NCBI GenBank assembly: GCA_033582455.1
Contig: JAVQRO010000007.1
Location: 12,628-76,627 of the forward strand
Reading direction: 5' to 3'
Origin: Thermomicrobium sp.
GTDB lineage: Bacteria; Chloroflexota; Chloroflexia; Thermomicrobiales; Thermomicrobiaceae
DNA length: 64,000 bases
Shown here: positions 28,162 to 34,396 of the stretch, piece by piece
Layout of the letters: each line of letters begins with the position of its first letter
How positions within the stretch are numbered: position 1 is the stretch's first letter
Program-made: the position numbers and the translations under genes
Notes under the pieces: generated by a model
Databases searched by the model: none
What the model was told of the DNA's origin: nothing
Seen by the model: the letters and a program-made list of their open reading frames with translations, nothing else

Positions 28162-28293
28162 TGATACGCGGTGATAAAAGAGCGATGTCATACGATGACT
28201 GCTGTCCAGCGAACGTTCCCTCTCGTCAGGAGAGGCGAAGGAGAGCGGGCATCGGAGGCCGAACCGCGTCGAAGCAGGGGATGGTGGGGGAAA

Positions 28294-31029
28294 ATGGAGG
28301 AGGAGCGCGATGCTCGTCCGCGACCGACGTCGCTCGAACCACACCGCGAGAGGGCCGAATCGACGGATGGTTCGAACCCGACGATCTCCGACCGGTTGGT
28401 CACGCTGACCCGTCTCGGAACGCTGTTGAACCGCGCGACCGACTTGCGCGCTGCCGTGGAAGAGACCCTACCGCTGGTATTGCAGGTCATCGGCTCGAGC
28501 ACGGGCTGGATGATGCTGCGCCAGGGGGAGTCGTTCGAACTGGTCGCTGCCGCAGGACTGCCCCCAGGACTCGTCGCTGAAGACCACCGCCTGCTCCGTT
28601 GGTCGCCGTGTCGTTGCCAGCGTCTCGCCGCTTCCGGAGACCTCGCCACCACGGCCGAGATCATCGGCTGCGAACGCCTGGCCCGCATCCGCGAGCAGGC
28701 TCGCGACGCGGACGAAGCCGAGCTGCTCACCGGTGGGCTCCGCTGGCACCTCTCGATACCGCTCCGCTCGCCGACCGGGAACATCGTCGGTCTCTTGAAC
28801 GTCGCACGCCGCGATTCCAGTCCGCTCGACGCAGCGACCACCCTCTTCCTCGATCTGGTCGGGGAGTTTCTGGCGAGCGCGATCGAGCGAGCTGCATTGA
28901 CTGCGGAATTGCGACGACTCCGTTCAGAAGAGCGGGAGCGTGCGACCACGCTCGCCCAGATGCTCGTCGGAAGGGAACGGCTCACGGACGTCGCGGAATC
29001 GATCTTCTCGGTCCTGCAACCGATCCTCGGCTCCGATGCGCTGGGACTGCTCGTCGTCGACCCATCCGGCCGGTTCCTGGTTCTCCGCGCCGCCCGTGGT
29101 TGGGCGGCCGACTGGGTTGGACGCCTGTGGCTCCCGGTCCAGCCACCGACGCACAACGGACCGGCATGGGCACTCCATGTCGCCCGCCCGTTCACGATCC
29201 GGCTGGACCAGCTCACTCGCCCCTTCCACGTGCCGCCGCCGGTGGTCCAGGCGGGCGTCCGGATGTCCGCGTTTTTCCCCCTCTTCGCCGACCAACGACC
29301 CGTCGGCGTGCTCGTCGCCAACTCGTTTCGCCTCGTCGACCTGACCGAGGAGCAGGTGCGCTTCGCGCAGCTTCTCGCCGAGATCGGCGCGCTCGCCATC
29401 GCCCGGGCACTGGAGCGCGAACGGAGCGAGGAACTGGTGAGCGAACTCCCGCTCGGCGTGTTTCAGCTCGACGCCGCCGGTCGCCTCGTGCGAGCGAACC
29501 GAGCCTTCGCGCGCTTGCTCGGTCGGGAACGCCCCGAAGACGTCGAAGGATCCACCTTCGCAGACCTCTTCGCGGAACGGGCCGAGGCGCACCGTTTCTG
29601 GCGCGCACTCCGGCGCGGAGCGCTCCTCAGCGGCGTGGAATATCGCTGGCGGCGACCGGACGGCACGACGCTCTGGGTCCGTCTCTCAGCTCGCGCGACT
29701 CGAACCCCTGACGAGCAGGTCCTCCTCGTCGAGGGCACGGCCGAGGACATCAGCGAACGCAAACGGACGGAAGAGCATCTCGTCTACCTCGCTCGTCACG
29801 ACCCGCTGACCGGCATCGCCAACCGGTACGCGCTCATGGAGACGCTCGGGCGAGTTCTCGCCGAACACCGGCAGCTCCAGCGCGGCGGTGCCTTGCTCCT
29901 GATCGATCTCGACAACTTCAAGGTGGTCAACGACCGACTCGGGCACGCGGCCGGCGATGCCGTGTTGCGTTCGGTGGCGACACGCCTGGCCGGTATCGCA
30001 CGGACGAGCCAACTGGTCGCCCGGCTCGGCGGCGACGAGTTCGCTGTCCTGATCTTCCCGGCCACTCTCGCCACCGCCGAACGGGTCGCGCAGCGGGTCC
30101 TCGCAGCGATCGGGGAGATCACCGTGACGCTGCCCGAGCGCATCCTGCGCCTCGGCGCGAGCTGCGGCATCGCCCTTTTTCCCGAACATGGGACGACCGT
30201 CGAGGAACTGCTGATCGCAGCCGACCGCGCACTCTACACCGCCAAGTACCGTGGCGGTCGTCGCAGCGCAACGTACGATCCTCGAGAAGCGTATCGGATC
30301 CCGATCACCACACGGATTGCCACCGATCTAGAGACCGCGCTGGAGGACGGGACTTTCTTGCTCTATGCGCAGCCGATCCTCGACCTCCGCACCGGTCTCG
30401 TGGCCGGACACGAGCTGCTCGTCCGCCTCAGGGAGGATGAGCGACTGCTCGATCCGAGTTCCTTTCTGCCGATCGCGGAGCGACTCGGGCTGATGCCGAA
30501 GATCGATCGGTGGGTCGTGGAACGCGCGATCCACTATGCTCGGGGCTCCCCAACGCGCATCCACGTCAATCTCTCCGCGCAGACGCTGCACGATGCGGAG
30601 ACGCTCGACGCCCTCGCCGAACTCATGTCGCGTCACAGCGTCCCGTCTGGAACCATCGTGCTCGAACTGACAGAGACTATCGCAGTCACGGACGTCGCCT
30701 GGGCACGAGAGCAGCTCGGTCAGCTGCGCGACCAGGGATACCTCTTGGCGATCGACGACTTCGGCGTCGGTTACTCCTCGCTCTACCAGCTCCGTTCGCT
30801 GCCGGTCGACTTCGTCAAGATCGACGGCAGTTTCGTCACCGACGTGCTGCAGGACACGGTGAACCGAAACGTCGTGCGCGCTATCGTAGAGCTCGCCCAC
30901 GCGTTGGGCGCTGCGACGATCGCCGAGTGGGTGGAGCACGAGCCGGTGCTCCGAGCGCTGCGCGAACTCGGTGTCGACTACGCCCAGGGGTATGCCACCG
31001 GCCGACCAGAACCGGTCGAACGACTCTGA
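28294..31029 (+). CDS. GAF-GAF-PAS-GGDEF-EAL diguanylate cyclase/phosphodiesterase
   Basis: HDPLTGIANR, DLDNFK.VND, RLGGDEF; EAL domain with ELL, ELTE, IDDFGVGYSSL, VKIDGSF, AEWVE, YAQGY. Start uncertain (28171-28294). Confidence 0.93.
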   Translation: MEEERDARPRPTSLEPHRERAESTDGSNPTISDRLVTLTRLGTLLNRATDLRAAVEETLPLVLQVIGSSTGWMMLRQGESFELVAAAGLPPGLVAEDHRLLRWSPCRCQRLAASGDLATTAEIIGCERLARIREQARDADEAELLTGGLRWHLSIPLRSPTGNIVGLLNVARRDSSPLDAATTLFLDLVGEFLASAIERAALTAELRRLRSEERERATTLAQMLVGRERLTDVAESIFSVLQPILGSDALGLLVVDPSGRFLVLRAARGWAADWVGRLWLPVQPPTHNGPAWALHVARPFTIRLDQLTRPFHVPPPVVQAGVRMSAFFPLFADQRPVGVLVANSFRLVDLTEEQVRFAQLLAEIGALAIARALERERSEELVSELPLGVFQLDAAGRLVRANRAFARLLGRERPEDVEGSTFADLFAERAEAHRFWRALRRGALLSGVEYRWRRPDGTTLWVRLSARATRTPDEQVLLVEGTAEDISERKRTEEHLVYLARHDPLTGIANRYALMETLGRVLAEHRQLQRGGALLLIDLDNFKVVNDRLGHAAGDAVLRSVATRLAGIARTSQLVARLGGDEFAVLIFPATLATAERVAQRVLAAIGEITVTLPERILRLGASCGIALFPEHGTTVEELLIAADRALYTAKYRGGRRSATYDPREAYRIPITTRIATDLETALEDGTFLLYAQPILDLRTGLVAGHELLVRLREDERLLDPSSFLPIAERLGLMPKIDRWVVERAIHYARGSPTRIHVNLSAQTLHDAETLDALAELMSRHSVPSGTIVLELTETIAVTDVAWAREQLGQLRDQGYLLAIDDFGVGYSSLYQLRSLPVDFVKIDGSFVTDVLQDTVNRNVVRAIVELAHALGAATIAEWVEHEPVLRALRELGVDYAQGYATGRPEPVERL

Positions 31030-31085: not shown

Positions 31086-31796
31086 ATGAGCAACGAGCGG
31101 CCGGTCGTACTCATCACGGGTGGCACGGGTCAGGTCGGCTCGATCGTCACGCACTGGTTCGCCGAGCGCGAGACTCGTCTCTTCGTGCCCTACCGCTCTC
31201 CCGAAGCATGGGAACGGCTTCGCGAACGCCTCGGCCCGCTGGCGGAAGCCGTCGCAGGGCGACGCGTCGACCTCGCACAGCCGGACGGAGCCGAGCAGGC
31301 GGTCGCAGGAGCCGTCGAGCGGTACGGGCGCGTGGACTGGGTCCTCTGCTTGGCGGGCGGCTTCCAGCCGGGGCGGATCACCGAGACGACTCCTGCACTC
31401 TGGCAGGAGCTCCTCGCGCTCAACCTCTGGCCGACCGCCAATGTCCTGCGCGCGGTCGTGCCGCGGCTCTTGGCGCAAGGGGCAGGAAGGATCGTCACCG
31501 TCGGCGCGCGCTCGGCGCTCGAACCCGGTGCCGGAGCGGTCGCGTACGCGGCAGTGAAGCACGCGGTCATCACGCTCACGCTGGCCGTGTCGCGGGAACT
31601 CCGCGGGACTGGAGTGACCGCCAACTGTATCGCACCGGCAACGATCGATACGCCTGCCAACCGCGCTGCCATGCCGAATGCCGACCATTCCAAGTGGGTC
31701 CGCCCGGAGCAGGTGGCGGCATTGCTCTGGTACCTCTGCTCTCCAGAGGCTGCCGCCGTCAATGGAGCGGTCATTCCCATCGTCGGCGGGCAATGA
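31086..31796 (+). CDS. Short-chain dehydrogenase/reductase
   Basis: ITGGTGQVG, YAAVK (YxxxK), NCIAPATIDT. Confidence 0.92.
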   Translation: MSNERPVVLITGGTGQVGSIVTHWFAERETRLFVPYRSPEAWERLRERLGPLAEAVAGRRVDLAQPDGAEQAVAGAVERYGRVDWVLCLAGGFQPGRITETTPALWQELLALNLWPTANVLRAVVPRLLAQGAGRIVTVGARSALEPGAGAVAYAAVKHAVITLTLAVSRELRGTGVTANCIAPATIDTPANRAAMPNADHSKWVRPEQVAALLWYLCSPEAAAVNGAVIPIVGGQ

Positions 31797-31800
31797 GGAG

Positions 31801-33501
31801 CTACCAGCGACCAGCAGCGTGAGTCGGCATGTCGGAGCGTGGCCGACCGTCCCACGTCGCCCCGTAGAGATGCCAGCGGAACGCCTCGACGAGCGAACGG
31901 AGCGTGCGCGTGATCTCCTCCGGTCTCGGCTGGCCATCGGGAGCGAACCAGGGACCGACCGGCTCGGGAGAGAGAACGGTCGCACCGTGGGTCGGCACCT
32001 CCGGGTGCGGTGCTCCGTCCCAGCTGATCCCGTAGAGGTGCCAGCGGAACGCTTCGACCAGCGCACGGAGCGTCGCCTCGGTGGCCTGCCGGTCGAAGCC
32101 GTTCTCGGTAACCAACACCGGCACCGGCTCGCCCGGCCGGAGTTCCGCTGCATGGGTCGGCAGGTCACCGCGGTGGTCGACCCCGTCCCAACTCATCCCG
32201 TACAGGTGCCACCGAAACGCTTCCACCAGTGCGCGTGCCGTCGCATTGATCGCCTCGGCACGCGGCTGTCCGCGACTGTCGAACCAGGGGCCATCGGCCA
32301 GGTCCCAACTCGCGACGACGTCCCAAACGGTCCGCAGTTCCCGCCCGTCCACGTCGCGGGCGATCGCCTCGACGGGGTGATTCCCGGGGTCGAGGTGCGC
32401 GGTCACGGTGACCGTCGGTTCCCGACTGCGCGCCTCCTGTCCTGCGACACGTAACACGAGTTCCGCGAGCGGGCGTGGTGACGAGACCGTGACGCTGAAG
32501 GAGACCGGGCCAGGCAGGACGGTCGACCAGCGCGCCGGCTGGACCGAGACGAAGGAGAGCGTTTCGTGCGGGGTCGGAGGCGGGGTCGAAGGTGGTGGAA
32601 CGGGCGGCGTCGGGGGAGGGATCGGAGCCGGCTGCACCGTGCAACCAACGTCGGCACAGAAGTCCTCGACGAACGTCAGGACGTCCGGCGTGACCCGCCG
32701 GGCGAAGTTCGCCGAGAGCGTCTCGAAAGAGACGATGCCGAAGACGGCCCAACCGTCAGCCGTGACGAGCGGCCCACCGCTCATCCCCTCGACGAGATCA
32801 GCCTGCAGTCCGAGCAGGGCGGGCCCGACGGGCACGAGCCCCTGCCCAGGAGCCATCCACAACGTGCCGAACGGCTTGTCGCCCGGATAGCCGAAGGCGG
32901 TATAGGAGACGTGGTTCAGCTCCTCGTCGGACAGCGAGGTGAGCGCCAGTGTTCCCGCTCGCTCGCCGAGCGGTTCAGCCAGCGTGACGACGCCGATGTC
33001 GAACGCCACCGGCTCGCCGAGTTCGACCCATCCGCGCGGCACGGCCATCTCGACGCCCCGCGTCGTCCCGAACGGGGCGACGACCTGCGTACCGGTCCGG
33101 TCAGCGCCAGGAACCACCACGAGTACATCGACCCACCCCCCGAACTCGGACGCGTACAGGCAATGGGCGCTCGTGAGGACGACGTCGCGTCCGACCAACG
33201 TGCCCGAGCAGGTGACCATGACTCCGGTGGAGAACTCGCCGACCAGCAGCACGATCGCTGCAGCAGGGAGCTGCGTCGTCGGCGTGACGCGCGTCCGTTC
33301 GTCCGGTGGGAAGACGCGCTGATACGAGGCTCGGCTGGCTCGCTCGAGCAGCGCATCCGCGGAGACCTCGTTCGACCGAACGAGCCGGTGCTGGACGAAG
33401 GAACCCGGCTCAGCCGCGACCGGGGCGGCCACGAGCACCACCGGGAGAGCGAACGAGGCGACGAGCAGGAATGCGAGCCATCGAACACCGCGGTTCAACA
33501 T
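31801..33501 (-). CDS. Secreted trypsin-like (V8/glutamyl endopeptidase-like) serine protease with Ig-like domain and three C-terminal 56-aa repeats
   Basis: Signal peptide; CSGTLVG..VVLTSAHC, DIGV, GMSGGP triad motifs; Pro-rich linker; repeated LVEAFRWHLYG. Confidence 0.88.
   Translation of the reverse strand: MLNRGVRWLAFLLVASFALPVVLVAAPVAAEPGSFVQHRLVRSNEVSADALLERASRASYQRVFPPDERTRVTPTTQLPAAAIVLLVGEFSTGVMVTCSGTLVGRDVVLTSAHCLYASEFGGWVDVLVVVPGADRTGTQVVAPFGTTRGVEMAVPRGWVELGEPVAFDIGVVTLAEPLGERAGTLALTSLSDEELNHVSYTAFGYPGDKPFGTLWMAPGQGLVPVGPALLGLQADLVEGMSGGPLVTADGWAVFGIVSFETLSANFARRVTPDVLTFVEDFCADVGCTVQPAPIPPPTPPVPPPSTPPPTPHETLSFVSVQPARWSTVLPGPVSFSVTVSSPRPLAELVLRVAGQEARSREPTVTVTAHLDPGNHPVEAIARDVDGRELRTVWDVVASWDLADGPWFDSRGQPRAEAINATARALVEAFRWHLYGMSWDGVDHRGDLPTHAAELRPGEPVPVLVTENGFDRQATEATLRALVEAFRWHLYGISWDGAPHPEVPTHGATVLSPEPVGPWFAPDGQPRPEEITRTLRSLVEAFRWHLYGATWDGRPRSDMPTHAAGRW
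31805..32300 (-). repeat. Three coding tandem repeats with exact 168-nt (56-aa) period
   Basis: The conserved core CCCGTA(G/C)AG(A/G)TGCCA(G/C)CG(G/A)AACGC begins at 31861, 32029 and 32197 on the + strand. Confidence 0.9.
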
Positions 33502-33649: not shown

Positions 33650-34396
33650 GTGGGAGACGAGCGACGGGTGCTCGTGGTCGTTGCGCACCCGGACGACATG
33701 GAGATCGGGTGTGGGGGAACGGTCGCCCGCTGGGTCGACGAGGGTTGGACGGTCGCCCTCGTCGTCGTGACGGATGGAGGCGGCGGCGGTCCTGACGACG
33801 CCGAGGACGTCAGCCCAGAGGCACGGCGACGAATCAGCGAGATCCGCAAGGCGGAGCAGCACGAGGGAGCGCGTATTCTCGGTGTGCAATCCGTCGCATT
33901 CCTCGATTACCCGGATGGTCGACTCGAACCGACCTTGGACCTGCGGCGTGACCTCGTCCGCGTCATCCGACACTTTCGACCCCAGATCTTGGTCATCCCG
34001 TCACCGGATCGGAACTGGTCACCGGGATACCAGGTCGGGCGCTATCACCCGGACCACCTGGCGGTCGGGCAAGCGGCGCTCGCGGCGGTCTATCCGGCGG
34101 CTGGGAACGCGTGGGACTTCCCGGAACTCCTCGCGGAAGGACTTCGCCCGCATCACGTGCAAGAGATCTGGGTCATCAACGCCCCGGTCCTGAACCACGC
34201 TGTGGACATCACGACGACGATCGAACGGAAGCTCGAGGCACTCAAGGCCCACCGGAGCCAGTTCGGTGAGCGCCTCGCCCTCTTGGAACGCTGGATCCGG
34301 CAAGCCGCGATGGAACGAGGTGTCCGACACGGGATGCACTTCGCGGAGGAGTTCCATCGGATCCGCGTCCGGGAACCGTTCCCGTTCCGACGGTGA
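33650..34396 (+). CDS. PIG-L/LmbE family deacetylase
   Basis: AHPDDMEIGCGGT, RKAEQ, YPDG, HPDH metal-binding motifs. Confidence 0.92.
   Translation: MGDERRVLVVVAHPDDMEIGCGGTVARWVDEGWTVALVVVTDGGGGGPDDAEDVSPEARRRISEIRKAEQHEGARILGVQSVAFLDYPDGRLEPTLDLRRDLVRVIRHFRPQILVIPSPDRNWSPGYQVGRYHPDHLAVGQAALAAVYPAAGNAWDFPELLAEGLRPHHVQEIWVINAPVLNHAVDITTTIERKLEALKAHRSQFGERLALLERWIRQAAMERGVRHGMHFAEEFHRIRVREPFPFRR

Follow-up and report, generated by a model that had tools for sequence, protein, structure and literature searches.

What is the function of the triple repeat that ends a secreted protease of Thermomicrobium sp.? The gene in question encodes a protein of 566 amino acids (aa) and is located in a stretch of 64,000 nucleotides (nt) of contig JAVQRO010000007.1 (assembly GCA_033582455.1), which was analysed as a whole and is called the window below. 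An earlier note, made from the sequence of the window, had described the repeat as unrecognised and had proposed that it is a new cell-envelope anchoring or ligand-binding domain analogous to the trimers of S-layer homology (SLH) domains. We found that the repeats represent a real domain family that has no annotation and no sequence or structural relative in the searches made. Together with an immunoglobulin-like (Ig) domain, the repeats form a portable cassette of ~250 aa restricted to Thermomicrobiaceae (Thermomicrobium, Thermorudis, Sphaerobacter and Nitrolancea).

The triple repeat and its predicted fold

The core LVEAFRWHLYG occurs in the window protein exactly three times, at aa 425, 481 and 537, which gives a period of 56 aa or 168 nt. 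Motifs WDG (aa 438, 494 and 550) and PTH (aa 448, 503 and 559) were each located three times as well; the exact period, the invariant core and both conserved motifs had been correctly read in the earlier note. The spacing of the PTH motifs, 55 and then 56 aa, indicates a single 1-aa indel after WDG, the unit lengths being 56, 56 and 55 aa. The interval 31801-32320 proposed for the domain does cover the repeats, but it also takes in the stop codon and the last five Ig residues; the repeats proper occupy 31804-32304.

At the DNA level, a repeat search detected a 73-nt core in three copies (spacing 168/168, identity 77-79%), while the 168-nt period was not reported by Tandem Repeats Finder because the DNA copies are too diverged. 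The three protein units are 48-60% identical to each other. Even the 11 identical residues of the core are encoded by differing synonymous codons in the three copies, which argues that identity is kept by selection on the protein rather than by recent duplication; the codon pattern thus suggests an old repeat maintained by protein-level selection. Profiles of repeat positions 1, 2 and 3 built across the family matched one another with an hhalign probability of 99.9% (E from 1e-34 to 1e-38), therefore the repeat is not due to chance.

Conservation is concentrated in a few residues. Among 250 distinct repeats, L, R, W, H, W, D, P and H are conserved in 96-100%; the histidines of RWH and PTH reach 99-100% and the histidine of WDGxxH 90%, so that the module has nine conserved His, three per repeat. 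Trp makes up 6.3% and His 5.7% of the module. No other part of the protein evolves as slowly: mean identity is 71% in the module, 46% in the protease and 48% in the Ig domain (93% versus 61% in the nearest orthologues). Repeats in the same position of different proteins are more alike (60.7%) than repeats in different positions of one protein (45-51%), thus the triplication predates the spread of the family. Judged from sequence comparison, the conservation and the repeat pattern fit an old triplication held by a common ligand.

The AlphaFold2 (AF2) model of the module, computed from an alignment of 43 modules, is a compact single domain with a pLDDT (predicted local distance difference test) of 94.9 and a pTM (predicted template modelling score) of 0.88. 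Secondary-structure elements recur in it with strict periodicity: every repeat has one 20-residue helix (model residues 16-35, 72-91 and 128-147), and the loops are connected through short beta-bridges. In the full-length AlphaFold model (alignment of 34 orthologues, pLDDT 85.7) the module spans aa 403-566. According to these models the three repeats of 56 aa build a single domain and are not three separate ones. Each would supply a 20-residue helix (..NATxRSLVEAFRWH..) and a Trp/His-rich loop (G-SWDG-xxH-xx-PTH), and the folded module is probably a single compact unit with pseudo-three-fold arrangement. The structure prediction suggested in the earlier note has therefore yielded a confident compact domain with periodic secondary structure, and predicted disorder is ruled out.

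Searches for known relatives gave nothing. The module was unmatched in Pfam and NCBIfam, with 43 modules scanned by Pfam even at E<=10; the sole matches were short-helix noise (for example, UBA_At5g58720, SAM_LFY and TraF), far under cut-offs. LysM, PG_binding_1, CW_binding_1/2, ChW, SPOR and SH3b were among the families with no match to the module in Pfam (E<=10) or NCBIfam. Both phmmer and profile searches of PDB chain sequences were empty. A Foldseek search with the module model returned no similar structure from PDB (best E 2.2, template modelling score <0.2) and nothing from BFVD, and no description of the domain was found in the literature. Weak matches of an exhaustive search, P0099 (SpaA/thioester adhesin) and P0101 (insect cuticle protein), were judged spurious. 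The proposal of a new domain family, distinct from the SLH, LysM, choline-binding and PG-binding families, was borne out: the module matches no known family, has homologues and is predicted to be ordered.

Distribution and architecture of the cassette

A word-indexed search with the repeat region detected 87 proteins, the named ones all from Thermomicrobium, Thermorudis, Sphaerobacter or Nitrolancea. In none of them is the repeat annotated; labels are limited to 'trypsin-like peptidase', 'Ig-like domain-containing' and 'hypothetical'. A HMMER search among 1.84 billion representative proteins found only 25 clusters, the two spurious ones (P0099 and P0101) included. When 201 genomes of the class were scanned with a profile, the module was detected in 20 of the 24 genomes of the GTDB family of the source (2-6 proteins each), including all nine genomes of the source genus. 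Sister families had no module; elsewhere one bin, 51% complete, matched. The source genome itself has two carriers, the window protease and a 583-aa protein on contig C5.

Copy number is nearly constant. Of the 97 true members, 88 have three repeats as detected with a hidden Markov model (HMM) of the repeat, and the other nine, evident fragments included, have one or two. One subgroup, which includes the paralogue in the source genome, keeps all three repeats even though repeats 1 and 2 are separated by an inserted Ig domain of ~100 aa. With the family HMM, a specific Big_7-like Ig domain was found directly upstream of the repeats in 85 of the 88 complete members, which defines the mobile unit as Ig plus three repeats.

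The cassette may be C-terminal, central or placed directly behind the signal peptide. Domains found with it include Trypsin, Amidase_3, SNase, a PD40 beta-propeller, Germane, 3-keto-disaccharide-hydrolase/LamG-like and Big_1 domains as well as unannotated ones. In two proteins (P0082 and P0083) the module occupies the usual place of a wall-binding domain beside Amidase_3. The earlier note had left to be seen which domains the repeat travels with; they turned out to be many different extracytoplasmic catalytic and binding domains. A hydrophobicity heuristic predicted N-terminal signal peptides in 83 of 99 members, most of the others being fragments; these signal peptides and the conserved Cys pairs fit with export of the carriers. 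In a divergent member from a metagenome contig (P0096, L019:2113-3930) the triple repeat is fused to a DUF1616 polytopic membrane protein. The gene of this member overlaps the end of a GT4 glycosyltransferase gene, a context that hints at a link to surface-glycan assembly.

What the module may bind

The module is portable on unrelated exported proteins, it evolves slowest and its conserved residues are rich in Arg, Trp and His; given also the aberrant envelope of the lineage, this points to a module with a targeting rather than a catalytic role and with a ligand shared by all its carriers. Tandem-repeat surface-targeting modules, the functional class most plausible here, are already well known. 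CWB2 (three copies in Clostridioides Cwp proteins), LysM, PG_binding_1, CW_binding_1, ChW, SPOR and SH3b are likewise modular, non-catalytic, often tandem and fused to amidases and proteases. They differ from the module in length, secondary structure and motifs; the contrast in fold is drawn from the negative Foldseek search of PDB only.

We see about an even chance that the module serves non-covalent retention in the envelope by binding a lineage-specific wall or envelope component. After Sec export, it would attach to a conserved component of the envelope of these monoderm bacteria, presumed to be protein- and glycan-rich and peptidoglycan-poor. In T. roseum, protein is the main constituent of the wall, peptidoglycan is scarce and the outer layer is regularly structured (PMC2615216); the envelope of Nitrolancea consists of several layers and contains Orn/Lys peptidoglycan (PMC3504966). 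Binding would keep the attached enzyme at the cell surface: a glutamyl-endopeptidase-like protease in the window protein, an N-acetylmuramoyl-L-alanine amidase, a nuclease, a beta-propeller or a lectin-like domain in paralogues and relatives. The Ig domain and the Pro linker would serve as a spacer. A candidate ligand-binding or metal-stabilised surface would be formed by the WDG/H/PTH loops together with the Arg-Trp-His that is invariant in each helix. Alternative anchors are missing, in favour of retention by the module: the source genome has no SLH domain and the sequence of the window protease no C-terminal transmembrane or sortase-type signal. SLH, sortase-type and other standard anchors are missing in this lineage. 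A more ambitious version, to which we give somewhat less than an even chance, is that the cassette constitutes a surface-display system of Thermomicrobiaceae, a structurally new single-chain pseudo-trimeric receptor for a lineage-specific envelope polymer and thus a functional counterpart of the pairing of SLH with the secondary cell-wall polymer.

Several observations weigh against envelope retention. The argument for an anchoring role is one of domain-architecture logic and conservation only, that is, guilt by association. Four of the 24 genomes of the same GTDB family have no module, and 2-6 carriers per genome are few for a general system of surface display. No large S-layer-type protein bearing the module was found among the members, and no conserved neighbour gene pointing to a partner or a ligand pathway was seen. 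The module is acidic (mean isoelectric point 5.3), which disfavours binding of anionic wall polymers; the SLH modules extracted from Chloroflexota for comparison are likewise acidic. Protease, amidase and nuclease partners are equally compatible with targeting to a foreign substrate.

Such targeting would make the module similar in role to a carbohydrate-binding module: its ligand would be a polymer outside the producer, for example, cell walls or matrix of other microbes that live in hot-spring mats or compost, and lytic enzymes would be concentrated on this substrate instead of being attached to the producer. All catalytic partners have degradative functions (Trypsin, Amidase_3, SNase, 3-keto-disaccharide-hydrolase-like), the Trp content and the invariant Trp, Arg and His are typical of carbohydrate-binding surfaces and carriers are few in each genome. 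Still, we consider substrate targeting rather unlikely, given that no hydrolase is recognisable in many carriers (Ig only, PD40 propeller, Germane or unannotated domains), that a diffusible module would have no reason to be fused to a polytopic membrane protein and that the very narrow taxonomic range suits a self-ligand better than a common environmental polymer. A protein ligand is also conceivable. In dockerin-like docking the cassette would plug into a specific protein, for example, a major wall or S-layer protein, or would oligomerise its carriers; extreme sequence conservation, fixed copy number and the constant adjoining Ig domain agree with such a role, as does the protein-dominated, regularly structured outer layer of T. 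roseum (PMC2615216). However, neither a co-distributed or neighbouring partner gene nor any sign of a cohesin-like counterpart was seen, and we hold docking to be improbable; it also overlaps with envelope retention, as the carrier would likewise be retained at the surface and only the ligand differs.

Coordination of metal by the nine His and by Asp, for thermostability, metal sensing or sequestration and with no targeting, would account for the high His content and for the conservation of the three His positions, and most hosts are thermophiles. It leaves unexplained why the same domain is appended to unrelated secreted proteins and why there is a flexible Pro linker, and metal sites could be merely structural inside a binding domain; a stabilising role as such has, in our estimate, only a small chance. 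The smallest chance by far is left to a highly diverged SLH triplet (PF00395) that binds a pyruvylated secondary cell-wall polymer. The analogy with SLH trimers drawn in the earlier note does stand as far as design is concerned: in both cases three tandem units of ~55-60 aa (~56 aa in the module versus 58 aa in Chloroflexota SLH triplets) work as a single module, which is attached to the N or C terminus of various secreted enzymes in bacteria that are monoderm or have an atypical envelope, with non-covalent wall attachment as the presumed role. Membership in the SLH family, in contrast, was rejected. PF00395 matched neither the window protein at E<=1 nor any of the 43 modules at E<=10. Against a profile built from genuine Chloroflexota SLH triplets (58-aa period), hhalign gave a probability of 3.8% for the module and 0.3-2.2% for single repeats, whereas the repeat-versus-repeat control gave 99.9%. 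No SLH entries were present among the Foldseek PDB matches of the module model. The unit of the module has one long helix and a Trp/His loop, unlike the helix-loop-helix of SLH; its signature is FRWH..WDG..PTH, with no TRAE motif. A CsaB-type pyruvyl transferase (PF04230) is absent from the source genome, which is 93% complete, while the same profile matched 10 of 14 control genomes; the module is, moreover, confined to a single bacterial family.

SLH domains are rare in Chloroflexota as a whole. They were present in four of 151 sampled genomes, three of these in one family, and form 58-aa triplets with an unusual GGCG..(F/Y)CP motif.

Envelopes of Chloroflexota are poorly understood, and the module addresses the question of how the secreted proteins of T. 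roseum are attached to the cell. The domain family has few members and does not extend beyond one bacterial family, and its function is an inference; yet a confidently folded, strongly conserved and lineage-restricted module common to these exoproteins is a concrete handle on the envelope. With a tagged module, the ligand could be isolated and the envelope layer that is bound could be mapped. If the surface-display version holds true, the identity of the ligand would reveal a wall component in a clade whose wall chemistry has been unsettled since 1980. The module could also act as a thermostable tag for display or immobilisation, and the definition of the family fills an annotation gap for these proteins.

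The carrier protease, its neighbours and the second carrier

Features of the protease gene, its neighbours in the window and the second carrier of the source genome are listed in Table 1.

Table 1. Features of the protease locus and the second carrier (window positions, except for the second carrier; aa, residues of the window protein; ORF, open reading frame)
Feature	Position	Strand	Basis
Whole gene, 566-aa secreted protease with Ig and triple-repeat cassette	31801..33501	-	ORF list and translation
Signal peptide, aa 1-30, hydrophobic core LAFLLVASFALPVVLVAA	33412..33501	-	Hydrophobicity; AF2 model helix 4-22
S1B glutamyl-endopeptidase-like protease domain (putative), aa 83-285	32647..33255	-	Pfam, conserved residues, Foldseek
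Pro-rich linker, aa 290-312, PAPIPPPTPPVPPPSTPPPTP	32566..32634	-	Sequence; pLDDT
Ig-like (Big_7-related) beta-sandwich, aa 313-398, first half of cassette	32308..32565	-	Model; family HMM
Repeat 1, aa 400-455, helix 415-434	32137..32304	-	Motif, repeat HMM, models
Repeat 2, aa 456-511, helix 471-490	31969..32136	-	Motif, repeat HMM, models
Repeat 3, aa 512-566, helix 527-546, protein C terminus	31804..31968	-	Motif, repeat HMM, models
Stop codon of protease gene	31801-31803	-	
PIG-L/LmbE-type deacetylase gene, divergent from protease gene	33650-34396	+	
Short-chain dehydrogenase (SDR) gene	31086-31803, gene end 31796	+	
GAF-PAS-GGDEF-EAL signalling protein, 952-aa maximal ORF, adjoins SDR gene	28171-31029	+	
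Second carrier, 583-aa secreted protein	G000:C5:36152-37903 = L002:1495-3246	-	

The protease gene has 34 full-length orthologues. Its ATG is directly preceded by a Shine-Dalgarno-like motif, AGGGGG. The Kyte-Doolittle maximum of the signal peptide is 2.71, at residue 10, and cleavage likely occurs after VAA; a short pro-region follows at aa ~31-80 of the full-length model. The protease domain matched PF00089 (Trypsin, aa 92-278, 7.6e-11) and PF13365. The catalytic residues H113, D168 and S241 and the Cys pairs C98/C114 and C282/C287 are invariant across the 34 orthologues. The solved structures closest to the domain in Foldseek are 1p3c, the glutamyl endopeptidase of Bacillus intermedius (TMt 0.89), Esp and V8, with TMt in the range of 0.81-0.89 for 1p3c, 6tya and 1wcz. 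By its predicted trypsin fold and its triad the domain is assigned to peptidase family S1B, as a glutamyl-endopeptidase-like enzyme with putative Glu specificity. It shares its S1B fold and the intact His/Asp/Ser triad with the glutamyl endopeptidases V8/SspA, Esp and GluBI; however, the known S1B enzymes are single domains of ~215 aa, whereas the carrier adds a Pro linker, an Ig domain and the triple-repeat module.

Residues 296-312 of the linker are predicted to be disordered (pLDDT <50). The Ig domain has seven or eight strands at aa 316-397 of the AF2 model, with pLDDT >90; it had no match in Pfam, and homologous cassettes matched PF17957 (Big_7) with E from 1e-5 to 4e-8. The order of trypsin-like domain, Pro linker and Ig-like domain in front of the repeats, as described in the earlier note, is therefore confirmed.

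The nearest protease relatives that have no module (P0104, P0105 and P0106) carry another conserved C-terminal domain of ~250 aa (RTWARTDxPVA..RTWMWGPEPF..), with no precomputed Pfam annotation. Domain replacement in these nearest relatives gave no clue, the other C-terminal domains being equally unannotated.

The second carrier starts with an unannotated N-terminal domain of ~230 aa (QVTTDGWSGHVEACG...), followed by Ig, repeat 1, the inserted Ig, repeat 2 and repeat 3, and it is kept in all nine genomes of the genus. Its identification with the T. roseum wall protein described as '75,000 kDa' and rich in Gly, Pro, Glu and Ala was unsupported: the protein is of 63 kDa, with 10.8% G, 6.8% P, 5.0% E and 10.1% A.

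In the window, the SDR gene and the protease gene converge with essentially no spacer, the SDR gene ending 4 nt from the stop codon of the protease gene, and no terminator-like hairpin was detected. The order of PIG-L, protease, SDR and GGDEF-EAL genes is kept within the genus only (L017), and the context in Sphaerobacter differs (L018). There, Sphaerobacter thermophilus has two tandem paralogous proteases, of 573 and 597 aa, both bearing the cassette (L018:8001-11730).

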